Below, piece after piece: positions 1,669 through 10,557 of a stretch of DNA of 11,073 nt. This DNA comes from Clostridium sp. CAG:594 (GTDB taxonomy: Bacteria > Bacillota_I > Bacilli_A > RF39 > UBA660). Both the position numbers and the translations under genes were made by a program. Every line of letters begins with the position of its first letter. Position 1 is the first letter of the stretch. The stretch is from the NCBI GenBank assembly GCA_000434835.1, contig FR881490.1, forward strand, positions 37,519 through 48,591. Reading direction: 5' to 3'. A model generated the notes under the pieces. It ran no database searches. It was not told the DNA's origin and saw only the letters and a program-made list of their open reading frames with translations.

Positions 1669-2329
1669 AATCTTTTACAAGTTTTCCATTGTCTAATAAA
1701 ACGACTCTTTTCTTCATCTTATTAACCATTTCTCTATCATGAGTAGCCATTACAACGGTAGTACCTAAATCGTTAATTTTTTCAATTACTTTCATAACTT
1801 CTAAACTTGTATCTGGATCTAGGTTACCTGTTGGTTCATCACAAATCAAAAGTTTTGGAGAATTAACTATTGCACGCGCTATTGCAACACGTTGTTGTTC
1901 ACCACCTGACAATTGGTTTGGATAACTCTTGGTTTTTGATTTTAAACCAACTAAATCAAGAGCCTTTAATACTTTTCTTTTTACCTCATTAGTTGGAAGA
2001 CCATATATTTCAAGTGCAAAAGCTACGTTTTCATATACGGTTAGTTTTGGCAATAATTTATAATCTTGAAACACTATTCCAATTTTTCTTCTTAATTTAT
2101 AAACCTTATTATTTTTTACTTTAGCAACGTTTATACCACCAACATAAATTTCTCCATTAGTTGGTCTTTCTTCACGATATAGCATTTTTATAAGGGTAGA
2201 TTTCCCTGAACCTGACGCCCCTATTACGAATACGAACTCACCTTTTTTTATATCAAGGTTCATATCATATACAGCGTTTACACCATTTTTGTATGTTTTT
2301 TCAACATTTCTAAACTTAATAAATTCCAT
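1631..2329 (-). CDS. ftsE: Cell-division ATP-binding protein FtsE (ABC ATPase)
   Basis: Walker [13 protein letters not shown] signature LSGGEQQRV, Walker [13 protein letters not shown], and H-loop ATHD. It is 232 aa and paired with ftsX. The SD AAAGGAAGGTG lies 7 nt upstream of the ATG. Confidence 0.9.
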
Positions 2330-2359
2330 ATTACTGCACCTTCCTTTAATTCTTTTTTA

Positions 2360-3265
2360 TTAGATAATACTTGTATTACCTGTGTATATACCAGATGTTT
2401 GATATGCATCTGTTACTAATATTACTGCTTTTGGATCAATTTGTGTTACTCCACTTTTTAGCTCAAAGTAATCACCAGTTGGAACAACACACATTATTAA
2501 TTGATCTTTTTTATTTGTATAACCACCTCTTGTTTCAATTAACGTTATACCTAAATTTAATTCATTTAACAAATAGTCACAGACTAAGTCATCTTCTTTT
2601 GTTGTAATATAAACAGCTTTATTACTAGATATTCCAATTACTACTTTATCAACCATAATATTAATTAAATATAATACTATCAATGCATAAAGTACCCTTG
2701 TCCATCCGAAGAAGAAGCCACCTGCTAAAACAATAAGTCCATCAGTCATTAGCATAGAAGTTCCAATTGAAACTTTAAAATATCTTGCTACTATTTGATT
2801 TAATATATCAGTTCCACCAGTTGTAAATCCACTTTTAAATATAATACCAGATGCAGTACCTACGCACACACCGCCTACTATTGATATTAAAAGTAAATTA
2901 TCGTTTGAAATATGAATATAATCTCCTATATTTGCCGTAAATTTAACAAATAGTGGGAATAAAACTGAACCTACAACCGAGTCTAGAGTTTTTCTTTTTC
3001 CTAATAATAACAAACTTAAAATTAGGAAAAAGACGTTTAAGATAAGTATCATAACAGAAGGATCTATTATCTTTTGGGTAATTATTGATATACCACTTGC
3101 ACCACCATATACTATATTATTTTTAAAAAAGAATAAATTATATGCTGCTGCATAAATTGCGGTACCAATAATTAGAAATACATATTTTTTAAAGAGGTTT
3201 GCCTTTTCTATCATCGCTAATACTTTAGAATCTTTTTTACTTCTAATTTTTCTTATTAGTCTCAT
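2360..3265 (-). CDS. YitT-family integral membrane protein (with a DUF2179-type C-terminal domain)
   Basis: Multi-TM N-terminal region with GGASGISII and GGTDIL motifs, followed by a soluble C-terminal domain (ITLIETRGGYT...VVPTGDYFELK), as in the YitT/YpjC/YqfU family. The SD AAGGAG lies 9 nt upstream of the ATG at 3265. The start overlaps the prfB 3' end by 23 nt. Confidence 0.75.
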   Translation of the reverse strand: MRLIRKIRSKKDSKVLAMIEKANLFKKYVFLIIGTAIYAAAYNLFFFKNNIVYGGASGISIITQKIIDPSVMILILNVFFLILSLLLLGKRKTLDSVVGSVLFPLFVKFTANIGDYIHISNDNLLLISIVGGVCVGTASGIIFKSGFTTGGTDILNQIVARYFKVSIGTSMLMTDGLIVLAGGFFFGWTRVLYALIVLYLINIMVDKVVIGISSNKAVYITTKEDDLVCDYLLNELNLGITLIETRGGYTNKKDQLIMCVVPTGDYFELKSGVTQIDPKAVILVTDAYQTSGIYTGNTSII

Positions 3266-4359
3266 TTATTTTTTCTCCTTTTAAATTACTTTCTATAAAT
3301 CCGTCTAAATTACCATCTAAAACTTTATTAACATTAGATGTTTCGTAACCTGTTCTATGGTCTTTTATCATTGAGTATGGATGAAGTACATAACTTCTTA
3401 TTTGCGATCCAAATTCTATTCCACTATGGTCACTTTTCATAGAATCTATTTTTTCTTTTCTCATTTTTAGTTCTATTTGATAAAGCTTACTTTTTAAAAC
3501 TTTAAGTGCTGTTTCTTTATTTTTTATCTGACTTCGTTCGTTTTGACAAGTAACTACTATTCCGGTTGGTATATGAGTTACCCTAACAGCAGAATCAGTT
3601 GTATTTACTCCTTGTCCTCCAGCGCCACTACTTCTATATACGTCTATTCTAACGTCGGAATCTTTTATTTCTATATCTATATCATCGTCAAATTCTGGTA
3701 TAACATCAACGGCTGCAAAAGAAGTATGACGTCTGTTATTTGAGTCAAACGGAGATAATCTAACTAGCCTATGAACGCCTTTTTCATTTTTTAAGTACCC
3801 GTAAGCATATGCTCCTTTTACAATATACACAATACTTTTTATTCCGGCCTCTTCGCCTTCTTGCTCATCTATTACTTCATATGAATAATTTTTTTTATCA
3901 AAATATTTTGTGTACATTCTAGAAAGCATCATTGTCCAATCACAGCTTTCTGTACCACCTGCCCCGGCGTGTATTTCAAAAATGGCGGCATTATTATCAA
4001 ATTTTCCAGATAAATATGTAAGAGTTTCTTGCTTTTCTAACTCTATAGTAGAATCTTCATATAATTTTTCAAATTCTTCTTTTAAAGTAGAATCTAAGGT
4101 ATTTTCATCAAACTCTTTAAACTGATTTAAAGTATCTATATTTTCTTTCAACTTAATAATAGGGTTAATAATCTCATTTAATTCACTCATTTTTTTAGTT
4201 AGTTTTTCTGCATTCTTACTATCATCCCAAATATTTGGTTCTGATAATTTCTTATTTAATTTTTTTATCTCTTTTTGCTTTTCATCTGCCTCAAAGAGAC
4301 CTCCATATTTGATTAAACTTGCTATTTAATATTTCTATATCTTTATTTGTAATTTCCAT
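3243..4359 (-). CDS. prfB: Peptide chain release factor 2, expressed through a programmed +1 ribosomal frameshift
   Basis: GGQ motif (SGAGGQGVNTTDSAVR) and the RF2-specific SPF tripeptide (RLSPFD). The ORF track starts at an internal Met (4190). The real gene starts at the ATG at 4359-4357 (MEITNKDIEILNSKFNQIWRSL) and meets an in-frame TGA at 4293-4291. Reading continues in the +1 frame from GAG at 4292-4290 (EADEKQKEIKKLNKKLSEPNIWDD...), which is in frame with the annotated ORF. The product is about 371 aa. Confidence 0.93.
4291..4304 (-). promoter_or_regulatory. prfB autoregulatory +1 frameshift site (internal SD-like GGAGG, then TCT CTT TGA G)
   Basis: The minus strand reads tatGGAGGtctCTTTGAgg. 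This has the canonical RF2 architecture: an SD-like element 3 nt upstream of the slippery CTT codon, followed by TGA. Confidence 0.9.
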
Positions 4360-4376
4360 ATAATCACCTATAATAT

Positions 4377-4385
4377 AGTATAACA
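4377..4385 (-). promoter_or_regulatory. Candidate extended -10 element (TGtTATACT) upstream of prfB
   Basis: The minus strand reads gTGtTATACTatattatAGGTGAttatATG. The -10 sits only about 7 nt from the SD, so the leader would be very short. No clear -35 is visible. Confidence 0.3.
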
Positions 4386-4565
4386 CATTTTTTTTCTTAT
4401 TTAAATCCATTACAAAAAAAACACAGTATTTTTTAACATTTTAAATTCTATTAAAATTTTTAAACCTTTAATACATAAAAAATATAAATAAATTATAACC
4501 AACGAAAATTTCTTTTAAAACATCTAGAATATGAAATTATATTTTTTTAAGAAAAATTATCATAA

Positions 4566-5840
4566 TTAAATTTGACCATTATATTTATACAATTTTTTTA
4601 CTATTGGTGAATATTCTACTTTGGATAAATCTTTTTCTTTTTTATAAGAAATATACTTTGTTAGATACATACTTTGAACAAGCATTTGATAATCATCTAA
4701 TATTTGGTCTTCAAATTTGGAATCAATAGTGATAATTCTACTATAATATTTTTTCAATTCTTCTAGCATGATTCTGTCAAATTCAGTATTTCTATTATAA
4801 TAAATAGCTACATTATTATAATTAATAGCAAGTGTACTCCTACCATGACAATAAGAATATTTATCATGAACTATTGGTATTCCAATTCCGGATTCAACCA
4901 TAGTTGATTCTAAATATTTTGATGCCACACTTGTATCGTAACCACTAAATATTTCGTATATATCACTTTCTAAATCAAATTCAAATGATGATTCTTCTAT
5001 ACAATCTAATATCAAATCTTTTTGTCCATTTAAATAATAGTCCATCAATATGCTTACCGGAATTAATGTAGCACCAACAGAAATAAAACTATTTTCTTTT
5101 GGAATATTAGTATTATATTTTAAATAAGTTACATCACTATCATTAAAAGAGTTGTTGGACAATAGATATTTTTTTAACTGATTTTCAAAAGATAATTCAA
5201 CTCCGTAATTATTTCCGCTGTAACTACACGATATAACATTTTTAAATGCTTTATTATTTTGATATAAGAAGTCTCTTGGCTCACTATTTATTGAAACTAT
5301 ACCGTTTTTAGCATTAATAACCTTTGCTCCAAATTCACTAACCACACTTGAGCCTCCAACACCACTAAATAATGTTGGACCACTTAATTTAGATAATTCT
5401 TTTCTAATAAATTTCAAATCAGTAGATTCTAATGAATCAATAACTCTTTCTTTTAAAATATCAAAATTAACTTGCATATTTTTTTGATAATATTTTTTGA
5501 ATTGATTATAGTCTATTACTGGCACATTATCATCTTTTTCACCAATTTTACAACAGTAACAATCTCCGTTATCAAAAATTTCATAAAATTTTTCATTGTA
5601 TTTTAGCAAATAACAAAATGTATTTTTAAATGTAATTCCATTTTTAAATCCATATTTATTAATTTGATCAAACAAAGTTGATATATAACCAATAAAAATA
5701 AGGTCTTTTTCACTTAAAAATTCTCTACCGTTGTGCAGAAAATAGCAATCGTCAAATTCCCCATATTGTTCAATAAAAATATTAATCCAATTAATATATT
5801 CATCATTTAATATCAGTTTTATAAATTTTTTATTTTCCAT
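4566..5840 (-). CDS. Uncharacterised 424-aa protein: an unrecognised N-terminal domain (about aa 1-145) fused to a putative tandem SIS-type phosphosugar-binding/isomerase fold (about aa 146-424)
   Basis: The long ORF has the SD AAAGGAG 7 nt upstream of its ATG. Motif-level resemblance to SIS proteins: SGVGGSSVVSEFGAKVI (compare GxGGS..A), ISCSYSGNNYGVE (compare S-Y/Q-SGNT/ET-xE), and IFSGYDTSVASKYLESTMVESGIGIPIVHDKYSYCHGRSTLAI (compare the second SIS subdomain G.G....A.EgaLK.kE.....a.....e.kHGp.ali of GlmS/AgaS/FrlB). I recognise nothing in the N-terminal domain, which includes DCYFLHNGREF and a CYCC cluster. No signal peptide or TM segment is present. Confidence 0.45.
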   Translation of the reverse strand: MENKKFIKLILNDEYINWINIFIEQYGEFDDCYFLHNGREFLSEKDLIFIGYISTLFDQINKYGFKNGITFKNTFCYLLKYNEKFYEIFDNGDCYCCKIGEKDDNVPVIDYNQFKKYYQKNMQVNFDILKERVIDSLESTDLKFIRKELSKLSGPTLFSGVGGSSVVSEFGAKVINAKNGIVSINSEPRDFLYQNNKAFKNVISCSYSGNNYGVELSFENQLKKYLLSNNSFNDSDVTYLKYNTNIPKENSFISVGATLIPVSILMDYYLNGQKDLILDCIEESSFEFDLESDIYEIFSGYDTSVASKYLESTMVESGIGIPIVHDKYSYCHGRSTLAINYNNVAIYYNRNTEFDRIMLEELKKYYSRIITIDSKFEDQILDDYQMLVQSMYLTKYISYKKEKDLSKVEYSPIVKKLYKYNGQI

Positions 5841-5847
5841 AATAATT

Positions 5848-5879
5848 CTCCTTTTAAGTTAACTATAACTTAAAAGGAG
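5848..5879 (-). promoter_or_regulatory. Perfect palindrome (14-bp arms, 4-nt spacer) containing the SD of the 424-aa gene. It could be an operator or an RBS-sequestering hairpin.
   Basis: The minus strand reads CTCCTTTTAAGTTA-tagt-TAACTTAAAAGGAG, followed by aattatt and the ATG (5840). Arms are 5866-5879 and 5848-5861. The element takes up most of the 51-nt gap between the WYL gene stop and the 424-aa gene start. Confidence 0.6.
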
Positions 5880-5891
5880 GCAATATTTCGT

Positions 5892-6494
5892 CTACTCATA
5901 TTTTTCATCTAATAATTCACAATTTATTATTCTTTTCAATTCAAAATGTCTAATATCTTGTCTCATTTCACAAAATGCTGCACAGTACCAACCATTTTGA
6001 AACAAAAACATTTCAGCAGGATATATAATTCTTTGATTTTCACCCTTACCATAAGAATAATACAATAATTTAACTTTTCTTTTTTCTTTTATGGCTCTTG
6101 TTAACAAATTGTATTTTTTTCCAGTTTCTTCTTTTAAATTTAACTCTTTTTCTTCTTGTTTGCTCCCTATATAAACCCCTTTTATTTTATCTTGAAGCAT
6201 AATTAATTCTTCTTTTATCTTCTTATCTTTTTCTTTTAATATATATTTATCTAATAATTTTGCATCTTTTAATTTAAATTTTCTAATTGGCATACGAATC
6301 TGCTGATTTAATACATATCCTCCATATGGTCCCATAATTGTATCTATATAAATCCCTGCTTTTTCTAAATCTTCTTTATAAACTCTAATCATCCTTTCTG
6401 ATACTTCAAGCTCATTAGAAAGTTCATTAATACTATATTTTTTTCCGTATTGTAACAATTCTAACATTGTTATAACATTAGATACTTTAGACAT
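5892..6494 (-). CDS. HTH-WYL domain transcriptional regulator (short form, no C-terminal extension)
   Basis: The N-terminal winged-HTH of the HTH_11/DeoR-like type reads VITMLELLQYGKKYSINELSNELEVSERMIRVYKEDLEKAGIYIDTIMGPYGGYVL. The C-terminal WYL-type beta-barrel motif reads RKVKLLYYSYGKGENQRIIYPAEMFLFQNGWYCAAFCEMRQDIRHFELKRI. I prefer the start at the second ATG (6494, MSKVSNV...), which has the SD AGGTGG 4 nt upstream. The ORF-track ATG at 6512 lies inside a TATAAT box. Confidence 0.75.
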   Translation of the reverse strand: MSKVSNVITMLELLQYGKKYSINELSNELEVSERMIRVYKEDLEKAGIYIDTIMGPYGGYVLNQQIRMPIRKFKLKDAKLLDKYILKEKDKKIKEELIMLQDKIKGVYIGSKQEEKELNLKEETGKKYNLLTRAIKEKRKVKLLYYSYGKGENQRIIYPAEMFLFQNGWYCAAFCEMRQDIRHFELKRIINCELLDEKYE

Positions 6495-6510
6495 AAAACC
6501 ACCTACATTC

Positions 6511-6519
6511 ATTATATCA
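6511..6519 (-). promoter_or_regulatory. Candidate extended -10 element (TGaTATAAT) for the WYL-regulator operon
   Basis: The minus strand reads tttatGAtATAATgaatgtAGGTGGttttATG. There is no good -35. The leader would be extremely short, so this is tentative. Confidence 0.35.
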
Positions 6520-6525
6520 TAAATT

Positions 6526-6553
6526 AAAAAAAGACTAAGAATAAATCTTAGCC
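6526..6553 (-). terminator. Weak intrinsic terminator immediately upstream of the WYL-operon promoter
   Basis: The minus strand reads GGCTAAG-atttatt-CTTAGTC, followed by TTTTTTT. The stem is 7 bp with one G-U pair. Confidence 0.4.
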
Positions 6554-6673
6554 TCTTATTACATCAGATAGTAATTAATATTAATTTTTAAATAATTTTT
6601 TATTGAAACATTGCAAGTTTTTATTCAACAACTTATCTAAGACAAAGGCCATGCCTAAAATTACCTGATCACA

Positions 6674-6710
6674 GAAAAACCCGCAATCCCTTATTTCATG
6701 CGGATTTGCG
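6674..6710 (-). terminator. Orphan intrinsic terminator following the SEC-C remnant
   Basis: The minus strand reads CGCAAATCC-gcatgaaataag-GGATTGCG, followed by GGTTTTTCTG. The stem is 8 bp with a one-base bulge. It begins 4 nt after the remnant's TAA stop. Confidence 0.5.
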
Positions 6711-6713
6711 AGT

Positions 6714-6761
6714 TTATTTACCACAACATTGCTTATATTTTTTACCACTGCTACATGGATA
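6714..6761 (-). pseudogene. Orphan SEC-C zinc-binding motif remnant, a fossil 3' end of secA or of another SEC-C protein
   Basis: The minus strand encodes YPCSSGKKYKQCCGK followed by TAA, and is preceded by an in-frame TAG. The live SecA tail is MCPCGSGKKYKQCCGK followed by TAG (8062-8109). The two share 37 of 45 nt, with most differences at synonymous positions. Upstream in the same frame (up to about 6830) is a decayed Lys-rich stretch with stops: PSAKKCEFKGKNATK*SQVIAK*. Confidence 0.7.
6715..6731. repeat. 17-bp exact direct repeat, left copy (tatttaccacaacattg), shared with the secA 3' end
   Basis: Identical to 8063-8079. Both copies encode QCCGK plus part of the stop codon on the minus strand. 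Confidence 0.85.
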
Positions 6762-6850
6762 CTATTTTGCTATCACTTGGCTTCACTTTGTTGCATTTTT
6801 CCCTTTAAATTCACACTTTTTTGCACTTGGTTACACTCGGCTTTTATAGC

Positions 6851-6886: not shown

Positions 6887-7371
6887 TTAAATTTGCAATA
6901 ATGTAAACATATTTGCAATGATATTCATAAAATCAAATATTGCTGATGTATATGATTTTATCACTACATCATATATAAGCCACATAAGCATTGTAAAAAT
7001 AATTAACAATTTAAATTTTCTTACATCTTTTATATTCATTAACCATATATATGAAACTGTACTAATTAGCGGTAACAATCCAATATATCCCAAATTATTA
7101 AATTTAAAAGTTAAAATTATTGCTAAAATTGTTATGATTATTTTTTCTTTTAATCCTAATTTGTTTTTATAACATAGTATATTTCTAATCATACTTGTGC
7201 ATTTATTATAGCTCCGGTTATACCACCTAAAATGATATTACTAACTACTGACATTCCTATTTGTACTGTCTGAAAATATAATATTTTTTTCTTTTGTTTT
7301 AGCATACCAGACTATAGCATTAATATTGAAGCAATGAGCGCAATTATATTCCCTATTATTATACTTACCAT
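6887..7371 (-). pseudogene. YgjV-family inner-membrane protein gene, disrupted by an in-frame TAG and a frameshift
   Basis: From the ATG at 7371 the frame reads MVSIIIGNIIALIASILML-TAG(7314-7312)-SGMLKQKKKILYFQTVQIGMSVVSNIILGGITGAIINAQV-TGA(7191-7189). It then overlaps (ATGA) the ORF-track ORF 6887-7192 (MIRNILCYKNKLG...LWLIYDVVIKSY...). Joined, the pieces give about 161 aa with the layout of a single YgjV-family protein. The family call comes from remembered sequence patterns. Confidence 0.5.
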
Positions 7372-7455
7372 TACTATCTCCTAATTTTATCAACTATTTT
7401 ACAACATTTATTATAAACTTCGGAATCTTCTCAATATCTACTTTTAATATCTTCA

Positions 7456-7533: not shown

Positions 7534-7851
7534 TTATTTTATTTCCTTATCTATCCAATTTAAATATTCTTCATTTATACTCGTAATATTATACACAGCA
7601 AATTCAAAACATTCATAGCTATGTTTACTCTTTATAACTTCATATATTTCTTTTAGATAGTTTTTCTTAGTTTTCATTTGAAGTAAATATTCTTTTTCTT
7701 CTTCTCTCTCATTATTCCAATTCCAGCTGCTTTCACTCTCAAGAATGTGACAACTAGCGACTAATTTTTTATCTAATAATTCTTTTGCGATACTTTTTAT
7801 TTCCTCATAATTATCATTTGCTGTTTCTAACATACAATATTCATTCATCAT
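7534..7851 (-). CDS. cutA: CutA1-family divalent-cation tolerance protein
   Basis: KLVASCHILESESSWNWNNEREEEKEYLLQMKTKKNYLKEIYEVIKSKHSYECFEFAVYNITSINEEYLNWIDKE matches the CutA pattern (LAACvni...S.Y.W.g.i.e..E..l..KT.......l...i...HpYe.Pei.a..i......YL.Wi..e). The ORF-track start at 7857 is a GTG inside the SD AAGGTGA. The ATG at 7851 or 7848 is more likely. Confidence 0.75.
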   Translation of the reverse strand: MMNEYCMLETANDNYEEIKSIAKELLDKKLVASCHILESESSWNWNNEREEEKEYLLQMKTKKNYLKEIYEVIKSKHSYECFEFAVYNITSINEEYLNWIDKEIK

Positions 7852-7960
7852 TATCACCTTTAATTATAATTAAATCATTTTTACCATTATCACTATGGCA
7901 ATGTTCCAAACCCCTAAAAAGCATTGAAAATACTATGTTTTTCTTATCCATTTTTGTTTC

Positions 7961-8061: not shown

Positions 8062-10557
8062 CTATTTACCACAACATTGTTTGTATTTTTTTCCTGAGCC
8101 ACATGGACACATGTCATTACGTCCTATTTTCTTACCCTTTTTAATAGTCTTTTTTACTCCTTGTTCTTTTGCTTCGTTAGTACTTCCCTTAACTTGCTTT
8201 GCTTGCAAATTTTGTCTTATTTCAGCTTTTAATAAATACAAAGTAGTATCTTTACAAATGTTATCTAACATTTTATCAAATAATTCAAATCCTTCTCTTA
8301 TATAAGCTTGAAGAGGATCCTCATTAGCATAACCCCTTAATGAAACGCCTTCTCTTAAATGGTCCATAGTATTAATATGTTCCATCCAGTAGTTATCAAT
8401 GACTTGTAAGCTTATAGCTTTTTCAAAGTCTTTTCTTATTTCATCAGGTAATTCTTTTATTTTTTCTTCATATTCTTTTAATACCTTGCTTTGTATAACA
8501 TCAATTATGTCATTTATTTCCTTATTTAATATTTCAGATAATTTTAAGTTAGAATTATTAAGTAAGTTTTCATTTACATATTCAACTATTTCATTACAAT
8601 CAGCTTCTAAAATTACACCATGTTCATTAGTGTGTCTTCTTACTAGTAATTCAATAAGCTCTTTCATTGTATTAATAACATAGTTGTGAACATCTTCATT
8701 GTCTAGTATTTCATTTCTTCTAGCATACATTATTTCACGATGTTTACCCATTACATCGTCATATTGTAATAAATGTTTACGTGCATCAAAGTTGTTTCCT
8801 TCAACTCTTTTTTGTGCTGTTTCAACTGATCTTGTAATAGTTTTACTACGCATGTTTCTTTCACTATCTAAACCAGCCATTTCTAAGATAGACTTAAATC
8901 TATCAGTACCAAATCTTACCATTAATTCATCTTCAAATGATACGAAAAATTGGCTATAACCTGGATCTCCTTGACGACCTGAACGTCCTCTTAACTGGTT
9001 ATCTATACGTCTTGACTCGTGTCTTTCAGTACCTATTACGCATAATCCGCCTAACTCTTTAACACCTTCTCCAAGCTTGATATCAGTACCACGTCCTGCC
9101 ATATTAGTTGCAATAGTAACAGAGCCCTTCTCACCTGCTTTTGCAATTATTTCTGCTTCTCTTGCATGGTTTTTAGCATTTAATATTTCATGCTTTATAT
9201 GAGCTTTCTTTAGCATACTACTTAATAATTCATTGGTTTCTATGGCAATTGTACCAACTAATACTGGTTGTCCTTTTTCGTGTCTTCTTTTAATTTCGGC
9301 GATTATTGCCTTATATTTTTCTTCTTTTGTTGAATAAATTAAATCAGCTGCATCAACTCTTATTACTGGTAAGTTAGTTGGAATTTCAATTACATACATA
9401 TTGTATATGTTTCTAAATTCTTCTTCCTCTGTTTTAGCAGTACCTGTCATACCAGATAACTTTTCATACATTCTAAAGTAATTTTGGAATGTAATGGTAG
9501 CAAGTGTCTTTGTTTCTTCTTCTATTTCTACGTTTTCTTTAGCTTCAATTGCTTGATGAAGCCCGTCAGAAAACGCTCTACCAGGCATAAGTCTTCCGGT
9601 AAATTGGTCAACAATTACAACCTTACCTTCTTGAACAACGTAATCAACATCATTATGCATTGTATAGTTTGCTTTTAATGCTTGATTAACGTGGTGAACT
9701 AATGCAGAATGCTCAATATCATAAAGGTTTGCTATTCTAAAGTATTTTTCACCTTTTTCCGTTCCTTGGTCTGTTAATGTTATATCTTTTGTTTTTTCAT
9801 CTATTGTATAATCTTCATTTTCTCTTAAAGTTTTAACAAATCTATCAGCATCCTTATAAAGATTAGCTGACTTCATAACACCACCAGATATTATAAGTGG
9901 AGTTCTAGCCTCATCAATTAATACAGAGTCAACCTCATCTATAATTGCAAAATGAAGTGGTCTTTGAACTCTATCCTCAGCGTTAACAACCATGTTATCT
10001 CTTAAGTAGTCAAAACCTAATTCGTTATTTGTTGAATATAAAATATCACAATTATAAGCTTCTTTTTTCTCCTTAGATGACATTTCTCTTAAGTTAACAG
10101 CTACTGTTAATCCTAAAAATCTATATATTTGACCCATCCACTCAGCATCACGAGTTGCTAAATATTCGTTAACCGTTACTACGTGAACACCTTTTTCAGT
10201 TAATGCATTTAAGTATGCTGGCATAACGCAAGTTAAAGTTTTACCTTCACCAGTTTTCATTTCTGCAATATTACCAAAATGAATTGCAAGGGCTCCTAAA
10301 ACCTGTACATAAAATGGCTTTTCCCCAATTACACGGTAAGCTGCTTCTCTAGCTACTGCAAAAGCATCTGGTAATATATCATCTACCGTTTCACCATCTT
10401 TTAATCTCTTTTTTAATTTATTAGTGCATCCTTGAAGTTGTTTATCAGTCATCTTTTTATATTTATCATCTAACTCAAATACTTCATCTGCAATTAGTTT
10501 AAACTTCTTTAATTCTTTATATTCATGATCAAAAATTTTCTTTAAAAATCCTAACAT
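8062..10557 (-). CDS. secA: Preprotein translocase ATPase SecA
   Basis: 831 aa. Motifs seen: Walker A MKTGEGKTL, DEAD-like IIDEVDSVLIDEARTPLIISG, TNMAGRGTDI, RLRGRSGRQGDPG, and the C-terminal SEC-C zinc motif CPCGSGKKYKQCCGK. Confidence 0.97.
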   Translation of the reverse strand: MLGFLKKIFDHEYKELKKFKLIADEVFELDDKYKKMTDKQLQGCTNKLKKRLKDGETVDDILPDAFAVAREAAYRVIGEKPFYVQVLGALAIHFGNIAEMKTGEGKTLTCVMPAYLNALTEKGVHVVTVNEYLATRDAEWMGQIYRFLGLTVAVNLREMSSKEKKEAYNCDILYSTNNELGFDYLRDNMVVNAEDRVQRPLHFAIIDEVDSVLIDEARTPLIISGGVMKSANLYKDADRFVKTLRENEDYTIDEKTKDITLTDQGTEKGEKYFRIANLYDIEHSALVHHVNQALKANYTMHNDVDYVVQEGKVVIVDQFTGRLMPGRAFSDGLHQAIEAKENVEIEEETKTLATITFQNYFRMYEKLSGMTGTAKTEEEEFRNIYNMYVIEIPTNLPVIRVDAADLIYSTKEEKYKAIIAEIKRRHEKGQPVLVGTIAIETNELLSSMLKKAHIKHEILNAKNHAREAEIIAKAGEKGSVTIATNMAGRGTDIKLGEGVKELGGLCVIGTERHESRRIDNQLRGRSGRQGDPGYSQFFVSFEDELMVRFGTDRFKSILEMAGLDSERNMRSKTITRSVETAQKRVEGNNFDARKHLLQYDDVMGKHREIMYARRNEILDNEDVHNYVINTMKELIELLVRRHTNEHGVILEADCNEIVEYVNENLLNNSNLKLSEILNKEINDIIDVIQSKVLKEYEEKIKELPDEIRKDFEKAISLQVIDNYWMEHINTMDHLREGVSLRGYANEDPLQAYIREGFELFDKMLDNICKDTTLYLLKAEIRQNLQAKQVKGSTNEAKEQGVKKTIKKGKKIGRNDMCPCGSGKKYKQCCGK
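8063..8079. repeat. 17-bp exact direct repeat, right copy, inside the secA 3' end
   Basis: tatttaccacaacattg, identical to 6715-6731. Confidence 0.85.

Follow-up and report, generated by a model that had tools for sequence, protein, structure and literature searches.

Introduction

WYL regulators commonly stand beside defence genes (PMC9122601), and several studies describe the sensing of single-stranded nucleic acid by WYL proteins (PMC11662680, PMC9186387, PMC11804915, PMC6547453). For CapW, DriD and PafBC it is known from the literature that binding of single-stranded DNA by the WYL domain leads to derepression. A different set of proteins is built on the SIS fold, which occurs in enzymes such as GlmS, NagB-II and FrlB and also as the sensor domain of RpiR/MurR regulators. 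Sensor SIS domains are single, not double.

Here we report on a locus in which a WYL regulator gene is directly followed by the gene of a 424-aa protein with a predicted double-SIS fold. The locus lies in a window of 11,073 nt from Clostridium sp. CAG:594 (contig FR881490.1, positions 37,519 to 48,591), the window being the whole stretch of DNA that was analysed. The WYL-SIS pair is conserved and undescribed, and belongs to uncultured gut bacteria. Our literature search found nothing relevant on WYL together with SIS, Ham1 or PfkB, and no described system or paper that matches the pair.

Results

Both open reading frames of the pair, as proposed in a first-pass annotation of the window, were confirmed (Table 1); the WYL gene is the upstream one and a spacer of 51 nt separates the two. 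The 424-aa protein had been called an orphan, which it is not, as its homologues form 1527 clusters at 90% identity and 268 at 50% identity, and the pair is common among RF39-type bacteria, with at least 104 species-level genomes carrying it. The SIS enzymes form a small, unnamed family. Pairing with a WYL gene is conserved: of the 159 loci with observable upstream sequence, 140 (88%) have one at -1 in the same orientation, and so do 20 of 24 clusters at 60% identity. The identities of the two proteins co-vary (Spearman 0.57). The pattern used to search metagenomes recovered 84 of 88 loci in validation. No copy of the pair was found on phages, plasmids or viral contigs in the phage, plasmid and IMG/VR collections searched.

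Table 1. Features of the WYL-SIS locus, in window coordinates
Feature	Coordinates	Strand	Remarks
HTH-WYL regulator gene	5892..6512	(-)	206-aa ORF; 200 aa from start at 6494
Second gene of the pair, 424-aa protein	4566..5840	(-)	
N-terminal domain (aa 1-118)	5487..5840	(-)	lineage-specific; in-frame insertion after third codon
Predicted double-SIS catalytic core (aa 119-424)	4566..5486	(-)	AF2 model, Foldseek, conserved columns
secA 3' end remnant and terminator hairpin	6667..6762	(-)	left border of the pair
Putative WYL promoter region	6495..6560	(-)	extended -10 TGATATAAT at 6519-6511, read from sequence
Conserved control element, 58-59 nt	5838..5896	(-)	covariance model, covariation, folding
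Box GUAGACGAAAUAUU	5895-5882	(-)	invariant; 5' part of control element
14-bp hairpin of control element	5879-5848	(-)	follows box

The 424-aa protein is confidently modelled (AF2, pLDDT 93.9) as a double-SIS enzyme fold of the GlmS/NagB-II/FrlB/PGI-PMI kind. The top 50 Foldseek matches to the model are all double-SIS proteins (E 2e-12 to 1e-9), with Lmo0035, NagB-II, the isomerase domain of GlmS, GlmD and FrlB-like proteins among them at E ~1e-11, which bears out the SIS fold first proposed for it. Sequence comparison of the protein with PDB, Pfam and PHROGs gave nothing useful, and Pfam had no match, SIS (PF01380) included. Among 64 relatives Pfam SIS is matched at E<=0.01 in only 10; those fused to PfkB score 26.6-37.7 bits against a cut-off of 25 bits, except P0231 at 18.3 bits. 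Profile searches did not assign the enzyme confidently to any curated family, all scores being far below the cut-offs. The PGI/PMI family TIGR02128 is weakly matched by 38 of the 64 members (best 1.8e-8), and by the window protein over aa 156-211 only (15.8 bits, E 0.005, against a cut-off of 213.9 bits), while the PGI/PMI structure 1tzb is a marginal profile match (E 0.4). The best solved-structure profile match of the family is a B. subtilis FrlB-like protein, 3eua (5.8e-5), and MurR is among the weak matches. In PADLOC-DB 2.0 the enzyme matched no defence model; an Avs2 match (E 0.045, 9.1 bits) was rejected as spurious.

The phosphate-binding loops of the core are kept, as GxGGS and as SYSG at 204-207 (alignment consensus and alignment to 3eua/5uqi). 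Across the 64 aligned sequences G162, G163, E316, H332 and G333 are invariant columns, while S164 and the C-terminal tail show little or no variation. The invariant Glu-His pair, E316/H332, is spaced 16 residues and aligns with the ME...YFHG segment of 3eua.

The N-terminal domain is likewise confidently folded in the model (pLDDT 92.8). Its fold has no significant match in the PDB (best E 0.29), and the fold search rules out a degenerate Ham1 or PfkB domain; Pfam did not match it either, and neither search showed the Ntn glutaminase domain of GlmS. Most family members lack this domain, their length being mostly 304-318 aa with a start at about query residue 119, and in L025 exactly this segment is missing. 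Where present it varies more than the core does; P0009 is a mosaic.

In the regulator, Pfam finds WYL (PF13280, 1.2e-16) over aa 134-199 and HTH_11 (1.4e-7); the winged HTH spans about aa 10-70, with Rrf2/DeoR-type HTH matches over aa 13-71. Pfam, the AlphaFold model and Foldseek together support the architecture proposed at first pass, HTH-WYL followed by a novel N-terminal domain and an SIS fold. The only PADLOC matches of the regulator are to generic WYL models (1.5e-29), and the solved structures closest to it are WYL domains, those of PafBC (7.4e-7), CapW and BrxR. It lacks the C-terminal WCX extension, ending 7 residues after the WYL domain, and its homologues are 191-209 aa long compared to ~290-320 aa for wHTH-WYL-WCX regulators. 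Among relatives it is unusually conserved (84-89%). Translation probably starts at the ATG at 6494, which has an AGGTGG Shine-Dalgarno sequence on its 5' side and gives the form called in most public assemblies; the upstream ATG overlaps the extended -10 box. Terminator-like hairpins lie upstream of the WYL gene at 6688-6667 and 6557-6529. The latter, flagged as a hairpin, is an inverted repeat, GGCTAAGA-N5-TCTTAGTC, that spans the -35 position of the WYL promoter and is a candidate autoregulatory operator. A block of ~110 nt upstream of WYL is common to the cassettes of L001, L002, L025, L028-L032 and L163 and is not kept in other clades.

The conserved box and hairpin in the spacer between the two genes are a new result. 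The covariance model finds one sense-strand match per locus, always at the WYL-SIS junction, and Rfam had no match over 5838-5896 even at E<=10. Both box and hairpin are confined to loci with a WYL gene and are not present in WYL-less loci. In the covariance-model alignment 95.1% of cells are paired, two-sided changes occur in 9 of 11 pairs and 94 compensatory cells are observed against 21.9 in shuffles; this alignment was fitted to the model and leans towards structure, the independent check being single-sequence folds with shuffles. Folded in this way, the window hairpin has -18.4 kcal/mol (z -5.5), and the 76 unique elements have a median z of -4.6 with the Shine-Dalgarno sequence paired in 74 of them. 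The sense strand forms G-U wobble pairs, a sign of an RNA hairpin. RNAalifold had found no structure in a MAFFT alignment of the spacer, in which stems of unequal length were out of register, and the covariance-model alignment took its place.

The 5' arm of the hairpin contains CCUCC, which pairs with the Shine-Dalgarno GGAG of the SIS gene (5851-5848); the loop holds a -10-like TATAGT (5867-5862), and an A/U-rich tract and then the SIS ATG (5840-5838) follow. The hairpin resembles an intrinsic terminator, with at least five U among the next eight nucleotides in 48 of 76 unique relatives; in the window it is strong, but its tail is AAUUAUUAUG. Such a terminator-like gate that sequesters the Shine-Dalgarno sequence suggests that the enzyme gene is normally off, and the proposal that the pair is self-contained and tightly regulated was supported. 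Three lineages have a separate terminator between WYL and the element, so that a promoter has to lie within the element or directly beside it. Of 84 unique elements, 63 have TAnnnT at a constant offset and 79 have TA. One clade has not conserved the T at -7, and the 21 nt between a -35-like TAGACG and the -10-like hexamer are too long for a standard promoter. The box is non-palindromic, unlike typical HTH operators. A second copy of the box elsewhere, as a sign of a regulon, was not found above chance, nor was an alternative antiterminator structure for the hairpin. A pseudoknot between box and loop was rejected, the complementarity being only 3-6 nt of A/U and not kept between clades.

The first-pass annotation saw the pair as an accessory module wedged into the secA-prfB junction. 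The junction is a real insertion site at which the 3' end of secA is duplicated: a remnant at 6715-6762, encoding ..CSSGKKYKQCCGK* and followed by the hairpin at 6688-6667, forms a 48-nt direct repeat (83% identical) with the real secA end at 8063-8110. In the window, however, these repeats bracket cutA/ygjV rather than the WYL-SIS pair. In relatives the repeats do bracket the pair (L018, L025, L020), with an integrase fragment and retron cassettes adjoining, and in L017, L024 and L031 the SIS gene has short remnants of the secA end on its downstream side. Cassettes at this hot spot hold a retron RT (6.3e-127) with an ATPase, RhuM/PDC-S05 (4.5e-135), HD-NUDIX, a weak viperin-like radical SAM protein and integrase fragments, and also hygiene genes (a DNA alkylation repair enzyme, an ITPase-type NTPase, CutA); in L018 a Schlafen/AlbA_2 gene shares the cassette with the pair.

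The phylogeny of the pair disagrees with that of SecA, and a patch of 83.8% identity lies between flanks of 96% identity, a mosaic that bespeaks allelic replacement. A vertically inherited core operon, with WYL and SIS more conserved than SecA, was rejected on these discordant pairs, the mosaic patch and the bracketing repeats. The order WYL-SIS-prfB-ftsEX persists in clades with an enzyme only 64-68% identical, where its divergence is in step with RF2 and FtsE, which argues that the pair is largely an old resident and not a recent accessory insert. The pair is old at the secA-prfB junction, yet with recombination and horizontal exchange.

In the window the pair has prfB downstream, and Ham1 and PfkB partners are absent. 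In other lineages such partners are found, so that the 'single effector' of the first description does not hold generally. Ham1, the commonest, is at +1 in 11 of 28 clusters at 60% identity; PfkB is at +1 in 3 of the 28 and at -1 in 2 clusters. Sister lineages have Ham1::SIS and PfkB::SIS fusions, the latter in at least 6 clusters. As judged from sequence motifs, the +1 protein is DHH/DHHA1-like in 2 clusters and Maf-like in 1. The PfkB kinases have a Cys4 insertion and fall into no curated kinase family, their weak matches to fructokinase, ribokinase, fructoselysine kinase and ribose-1-phosphate kinase models being far below cut-offs. One locus has the order WYL-SIS-Ham1-NUDIX-deoxyribosyltransferase-like-ASCH, and another PfkB-SIS-class II aldolase (FucA model, 1.1e-53), with an ORF nearby that looks like an MtnA-type isomerase by eye only. 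Elsewhere the pair adjoins rpsL-rpsG-fusA-tuf or hisS, or lies in a kinase-isomerase-aldolase cluster. No PTS or sugar transporter was found in the loci read in detail or among recurrent neighbour families.

Discussion

Our data most likely describe a WYL-switched, normally silent phosphosugar enzyme that acts on nucleotide- or sugar-phosphate stress. The reading as a whole, which we put at a probability of roughly 0.45, is one of inducible clean-up or salvage, directed at sugar phosphates that are damaged or derive from nucleotides, and not one of a toxin or of central metabolism. The HTH-WYL sensor-regulator and a GlmS/PGI-PMI/FrlB-type enzyme would form a self-contained regulatory unit, in which transcription that runs on from the WYL gene would be terminated, and translation blocked, at the hairpin. 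Like PafBC, DriD and CapW, the WYL protein would bind a signal (single-stranded nucleic acid or a nucleotide), and would then act at the box and turn the enzyme on. For this it would drive a promoter with its -10 in the hairpin loop, or else bind RNA beside the hairpin. The enzyme itself would open and then isomerise (or deaminate or deglycate) a phosphorylated sugar, supplied in sister lineages by the fused or adjacent PfkB kinase or Ham1-type NTP pyrophosphatase.

The fold, the catalytic residues, the WYL pairing, the Ham1 and PfkB fusions and neighbours, the control element and the absence from phages, plasmids and viral contigs support inducible clean-up or salvage. Against it stand the low scores of the enzyme relative to curated cut-offs, the lack of Ham1 and PfkB in the window cassette, the non-palindromic box, the 21-nt spacing and the T at -7 that one clade has not conserved; the island setting and the horizontal exchange, too, suit a conflict system no less than a stress module. 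The earlier hedge between a defence module and a sugar-phosphate module still stands, and now leans towards a nucleotide or sugar-phosphate enzyme.

A niche catabolic module is doubtful in our view. Here the enzyme would be an Amadori 6-phosphate deglycase working with a PfkB kinase on a fructosamine-type substrate, as FrlB/FrlD and FraB/FraD do, or a ribose or hexose phosphate isomerase that feeds a scavenged nucleoside sugar into glycolysis. The match to FrlB-like 3eua, the PfkB fusions and neighbours with their weak sugar-kinase matches, the aldolase locus with its MtnA-type neighbour and the weak PGI/PMI matches all fit such a module. However, the loci read in detail and the recurrent neighbour families include no PTS or sugar transporter, sugar catabolism leaves Ham1 unexplained as the commonest partner, a WYL regulator with a default-off hairpin would be unusual for a sugar operon, and the kinase and isomerase matches are all far below family cut-offs.

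We think it unlikely that the pair is an anti-phage or anti-plasmid module, in which WYL would keep a harmful enzyme off until infection makes single-stranded DNA or RNA, and the SIS enzyme (elsewhere with Ham1 or PfkB) would then act on a non-canonical sugar phosphate or nucleotide, which would be depleted, modified or made so that replication is blocked. The company of the pair at the secA-3' hot spot, the bracketing repeats and remnants, the Schlafen/AlbA_2 gene, the discordance with SecA and the divergent patch, the strict default-off control, the variable N-terminal domain and the frequency of WYL regulators beside defence genes all speak for it. Yet no PADLOC model fits the enzyme, the pair is missing from the phage, plasmid and viral collections, its neighbours elsewhere are ribosomal and elongation factor genes, hisS or a kinase-isomerase-aldolase cluster, in the 64-68% clade it keeps its synteny with prfB and diverges as housekeeping genes do, the regulator lacks the WCX domain of BrxR and CapW, and plain hygiene genes also sit in hot-spot cassettes. 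We found no evidence for the defence function that had been suggested, and the combination of genes matched no described system in the literature, nor the enzyme a PADLOC model.

Also improbable, taking its parts jointly, is a reading in which the pair, joined in sister lineages by Ham1 or PfkB, makes up the core of a hitherto undescribed system for conflict or genotoxic stress that centres on nucleotides or sugars. WYL would sense single-stranded nucleic acid and release a hairpin-locked isomerase-type enzyme, this enzyme would make or destroy a non-canonical sugar phosphate or nucleotide precursor, and the cassette would spread among gut RF39 bacteria via the secA-3' integration hot spot.

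We regard as very unlikely a housekeeping replacement, in which the enzyme, as an analogue of Pgi, RpiA/B or GlmS, would stand in for a core isomerase or aminotransferase putatively missing from the reduced RF39 genomes. The wide distribution of the pair, the conserved catalytic residues and the location among core genes are compatible with it, whereas the gate suggests a gene that is normally off, the pair undergoes horizontal exchange and allelic replacement, and the N-terminal domain and partner genes vary. We give very little credence to a non-enzymatic SIS protein that binds phosphosugars or nucleotides as co-sensor with WYL in a two-part regulator: the sensor role of SIS in RpiR/MurR, the weak MurR match, the co-varying identities and the unusual conservation of WYL would suit it, but the Glu-His pair, phosphate loops and C-terminal tail are invariant or nearly so in 64 diverse members, the fusions with Ham1 and PfkB, both catalytic domains, point to a pathway, and this SIS is double.

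RF39-type bacteria abound in the gut, are uncultured and have reduced genomes; an unnamed conserved pair in them marks a gap in knowledge. The pair ties a WYL sensor, so far a matter of DNA-damage and phage-defence regulons, to a metabolic-type enzyme, which the Ham1 and PfkB fusions connect with nucleotide house-cleaning and with sugar or nucleoside phosphorylation. Box and hairpin offer a testable target for gene control by a short WYL protein, and could reveal whether WYL proteins act on RNA or on hairpin-embedded promoters. The cassette arrays at the secA 3' end offer a new source in which the accessory and defence genes of this lineage can be sought.

Comparison with known systems

With the isomerase domain of GlmS/GFAT, NagB-II, GlmD, FrlB/FraB and AgaS-like Lmo0035 the enzyme shares the modelled two-SIS fold (TM 0.6-0.7 on the target), both phosphate loops (GxGxS and SxSG) and a conserved tail at the C-terminus that includes Lys. 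As in GlmS, a Glu and a His lie 16 residues apart; we take E488/H504 of GlmS to be the counterpart of E316/H332. It differs from this group in identity (only 11-16%), in not matching Pfam SIS, and in its partners, which are WYL, Ham1 and PfkB instead of amino-sugar genes; it has no glutaminase domain and carries an extra 118-aa N-terminal domain without known fold. The nearest curated sequence family is the archaeal-type bifunctional PGI/PMI (TIGR02128, PRK08674), similar in length (~300 aa) and in the spacing of the catalytic Glu and His, but far from the window protein in score. A PfkB kinase next to a double-SIS enzyme (in 5 of 28 clusters) or fused to it recalls FrlD/FrlB and FraD/FraB, although the window has no kinase, the loci examined have no transporter, and the regulator is of WYL rather than GntR or LacI type.

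Like PafBC, DriD, SiwR, BrxR and CapW, the regulator combines a winged HTH with WYL and lies directly upstream of its presumed target, and by analogy with WYL switches it may be ligand-gated (PMC11662680, PMC9186387, PMC11804915). It is only 200 aa long and without the dimerisation domain, WCX, of BrxR/CapW. Its conserved target is a metabolic-type enzyme, unlike those of known WYL factors, and in place of an inverted repeat at a divergent promoter there is a non-palindromic box with an RNA hairpin inside the operon. The candidate binder has HTH and WYL domains and not a known RNA-binding attenuator fold, unlike PyrR, HutP, TRAP and LicT-type systems. As in those systems, a terminator-like hairpin also hides the Shine-Dalgarno sequence, and the conserved single-stranded motif that adjoins it is a candidate protein-binding site.

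The secA-prfB junction and its hot spot

What is new here is a gene pair under WYL control whose SIS (phosphosugar-binding fold) family and control element are both new. All genes in the window lie on the minus strand, in the order hpf, secA, cutA, a broken ygjV, HTH-WYL, the 424-aa gene, prfB, yitT, ftsE and ftsX. The first-pass annotation had placed both genes of the pair and their 51-nt spacer correctly, and we confirm that observation; its interpretation is supported in part. Almost the same sequence as the window is found in a contig of 'uncultured Tenericutes UMGS957', and all relatives are MAGs from gut or rumen under the labels Bacilli, Tenericutes or Erysipelotrichaceae, which we take to be the RF39-type lineage. 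The G+C content is 0.19-0.26 over the pair and its flanking spacers (window 4000-6500) and 0.29-0.35 in secA, prfB and ftsE. The prfB gene shows the usual programmed +1 frameshift arrangement (window ~4291-4305 and 4190-4365), with a short upstream ORF terminating at CTT TGA behind a GGAGG-like motif and a main ORF (3243-4190) without the N-terminus.

Features of the window around the WYL-SIS pair
Feature	Position	Strand	Description
WYL gene	5892-6512	minus	ORF
424-aa enzyme gene	4566-5840	minus	ORF
Perfect inverted repeat GGCTAAGA-N5-TCTTAGTC	6529-6557		overlaps -35 position of WYL promoter
secA 3'-end copy, 48 nt	6715-6762		83% identical to 8063-8110; with terminator, just upstream of WYL
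Segment with cutA (CutA1, 1.8e-22) and a ygjV-like membrane gene	6887-7400 and 7534-7857		between secA-tail copies

The two secA-tail copies in the window bracket cutA and ygjV, the latter retaining an ORF only for its C-terminal 101 aa with the frames upstream interrupted, and this segment looks like a decaying inserted cassette. A conspecific strain, 98.9% identical over the secA region, carries a different 4-kb insert at this place (locus L001, 5489-8873), which holds a tyrosine integrase split into ORFs of 173 and 229 aa and two unknown genes of 266 and 407 aa. Remnants of the SecA zinc-finger tail (..CGSGKKYKQCCGK, then stop) with a terminator recur in relatives, 2 to 8 per locus and in a single orientation, and between one copy and the next lie from one gene to several, at most six, forming cassettes of 1-3 kb. 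The secA 3' end is a serial integration hot spot, seen in the window and in the related loci L018 (1-14200) and L025 (8700-14100). Its cassettes hold a retron RT with an ATPase, RhuM/PDC-S05, HD-NUDIX, radical SAM and GNAT genes, a DNA alkylation repair enzyme, an ITPase-type NTPase and integrase fragments. In L018 the cassettes hold radical SAM, HD-NUDIX plus RhuM, a nucleotidyltransferase, and an ATPase plus retron reverse transcriptase (6.3e-127), and there a Schlafen-like gene shares a cassette with WYL-SIS; L025 has a truncated integrase between secA and WYL.

That the pair itself is an inserted cassette, as the first-pass annotation held in reading it as an accessory cassette wedged into the secA-prfB junction, is true in part. 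Repeats of the secA tail bracket the pair in L018, L025 and L020, and its G+C lies below that of the flanks. The identities of WYL and SIS go together (Spearman 0.57), and each follows that of SecA only slightly (0.26 for WYL and 0.19 for SIS). Such discordance reaches SecA at 68% with SIS at 96%, and SecA at 99% with an SIS core at 79%; between the window and L012 the flanks are ~96% identical and the pair 83.8%. It speaks against a recent insertion that the synteny WYL-SIS-prfB-(yitT)-ftsEX persists in a clade with the enzyme at 64-68% identity, in step with RF2 and FtsE. The pair adjoins rpsL-rpsG-fusA-tuf or hisS in more distant lineages, and it was not found in the phages, plasmids and IMG/VR contigs searched. 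We read the pair as an old resident of the junction, beside an active integration hot spot, that has been swapped by recombination and at times picked up and moved by the hot-spot elements.

The WYL regulator

Pfam assigns the regulator a winged HTH (1.4e-7) and a WYL domain (1.2e-16), and among solved structures it comes closest to the WYL domains of PafBC, CapW and BrxR. The BrxR/CapW family has a WCX extension, whereas the window protein stops just past its WYL domain and therefore has none. Translation more probably begins with the ATG at 6494 (200 aa): the ATG of the longer ORF overlaps an extended -10 box, TGATATAAT (6519-6511), the Shine-Dalgarno AGGTGG sits before 6494, and the majority of public gene calls give 200 aa. 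The inverted repeat at the WYL promoter is kept, with an upstream block of ~110 nt, in the cassettes of distant genomes (L025, L028-L032 and L163) and not in other clades, and is a candidate autoregulatory operator.

We collected 80 genome and 118 metagenome loci, the latter retrieved by a DNA signature of the enzyme's catalytic segment that was validated on 84 of 88 known loci. The pairing proved to be conserved among homologues. Upstream sequence is available for 159 loci, and 140 of these have a WYL gene immediately before the enzyme on the same strand; for clusters at 60% identity the figure is 20 of 24. These counts cover enzyme carriers rather than RF39 genomes at large, every locus having been fetched via the enzyme gene.

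A hairpin in the WYL-SIS spacer

The spacer between the two genes is the best-conserved non-coding sequence in the collected loci. Its consensus is a box, (A)GUAGAC[G/C]AAAUA[U/C]U, after which comes a hairpin of 11-14 bp whose 5' arm CCUCC is paired to the enzyme's Shine-Dalgarno GGAGG, then a U run and the AUG. The box is retained irrespective of its UAG serving as WYL stop codon, and even where another gene, or 4.7 kb, lies between WYL and enzyme. A covariance model built from 16 sequences gave exactly one strong sense-strand match per locus, always at the WYL-SIS junction, and no element was found with it in the WYL-less loci. In the alignment fitted to this model, on which the covariation figures rest, pairing is seen in 95.1% of cells and two-sided changes in 9 of 11 pairs, with 94 compensatory cells compared to 21.9 in shuffles and a collapse in slid controls. 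Folding the 76 unique elements one by one offers an independent check: 66 have z below -3 (median -18 kcal/mol), the Shine-Dalgarno is paired in 74, and at least 5 U follow within 8 nt of the stem in 48; the window hairpin reaches -18.4 kcal/mol (z -5.5). The many sense-strand G-U pairs in the stem indicate a hairpin formed in RNA. No Rfam family matches it, and it is new to Rfam.

Of 84 unique elements, 79 share a TA at the same place in the hairpin loop, and in 63 it is part of TAnnnT; a TG often comes before it, resembling an extended -10. Three lineages have a separate A-tract/hairpin/U-tract terminator (z -4.3 to -5.9) between WYL and the element, so the enzyme gene there needs a promoter within or right at the element.

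The 424-aa enzyme and its partners

The 424-aa protein has no match in Pfam and none in the PDB by sequence. Its alignment-based AlphaFold model (pLDDT 93.9) was matched by Foldseek to double-SIS enzymes only (E ~1e-11, identity 11-16%), namely Lmo0035, NagB-II, the GlmS/GFAT isomerase domain, GlmD and a FrlB-like protein, which bears out the SIS fold proposed earlier. G162, G163, E316, H332 and G333 never vary across 64 diverse homologues; S164 and several more are close to invariant. The Glu and His, 16 residues apart as they are in GlmS and PGI/PMI, align to the catalytic segment of the FrlB-like 3eua. Among curated families archaeal-type PGI/PMI comes closest in sequence, matched by 38 of 64 members, always with scores well under the curated cut-off, and the enzyme falls under the curated threshold of every named family tested. 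On its modelled fold and motifs it is a member of the SIS superfamily, predicted to work like phosphosugar enzymes of the GlmS/PGI-PMI/FrlB type.

The N-terminal domain that the first-pass annotation called novel also stands: residues 1-118 are modelled with confidence as a domain of their own, for which a fold search gave no significant hit. It is an in-frame insertion behind the third codon, more variable than the SIS core; exactly this segment is absent from L025, and the majority of family members, at 304-318 aa, are without it. This is a small family: clustering at 50% identity gives 268 clusters among 1.84 billion proteins, and no name is attached to it in the public sources searched.

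Outside the window's clade the commonest gene following the enzyme encodes a divergent Ham1-type NTP pyrophosphatase (11 of 28 clusters). A PfkB kinase lies downstream in 3 clusters and upstream in 2, DHH/DHHA1-like and Maf-like proteins, both named from motifs read in sequence, also occur at +1, and Ham1::SIS and PfkB::SIS fusions are found in several clusters. The adjacent PfkB kinases form a distinct subgroup (L086 1671-2552; L186 3715-4629; L116 1184-2086) set apart by a CPxC insertion and by a CxC motif at the C-terminus, possibly a zinc site; they fit no curated kinase family, the best weak matches being ribose-1-phosphate kinase, fructokinase and ribokinase. These partner genes and fusions point to a phosphorylated sugar or nucleotide-derived compound as the substrate.

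Proposed mechanism and function

Our data show an RNA hairpin that hides the enzyme's ribosome-binding site, looks terminator-like and is found together with the WYL gene. Transcripts running on past WYL would halt, or remain untranslated, at this hairpin until the WYL protein, acting at the box, turned the enzyme on. By analogy with CapW, DriD, PafBC and WYL1, its signal is probably a single-stranded nucleic acid or nucleotide. The box may be recognised as DNA, lying at roughly -40 to -27 in a promoter with its -10 in the hairpin loop, a mechanism to which we give slightly less than even odds; activated transcripts would then begin in the 3' arm, leaving the Shine-Dalgarno free, much like the replacement of -35 recognition by PafBC and DriD. 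A plain promoter is disfavored by the 21-nt gap from the -35-like TAGACG to the -10 and by a poor -7 position in one clade. Less probable, and still a serious candidate, is that the WYL domain, which is Sm-like, recognises the A/U-rich box in the RNA and alters hairpin stability. Two lineages keep the hairpin even though a terminator already stands upstream, which favors an RNA role; in two other lineages it has decayed, which favors an insulator role.

The enzyme would then act on a phosphosugar, supplied in sister lineages by the PfkB kinase or the Ham1 pyrophosphatase. The best-supported reading, with a probability of about 0.45, is a stress-induced nucleotide or sugar-phosphate enzyme. One locus (L085 1549-3604) has the order WYL-SIS-Ham1-NUDIX-nucleoside 2-deoxyribosyltransferase-like-ASCH and looks like a compact nucleotide house-cleaning group. 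In a WYL-less lineage, PfkB-SIS-class II aldolase (FucA/AraD-like, 1.1e-53; L110 ~2262-4829) resembles a kinase-isomerase-aldolase sugar salvage set. A nearby ORF in L110 appears, by eye, MtnA-type isomerase-like. A role of the pair in niche catabolism, though unlikely, ranks next. A defence role is possible, though of low probability.

The conserved lock over the Shine-Dalgarno, the links to Ham1 and PfkB and the hot-spot setting make the function of the pair directly testable. We found no precedent for the Ham1 and SIS pairing in the literature searched; that of PfkB and SIS is reminiscent of fructosamine kinase/deglycase pairs.
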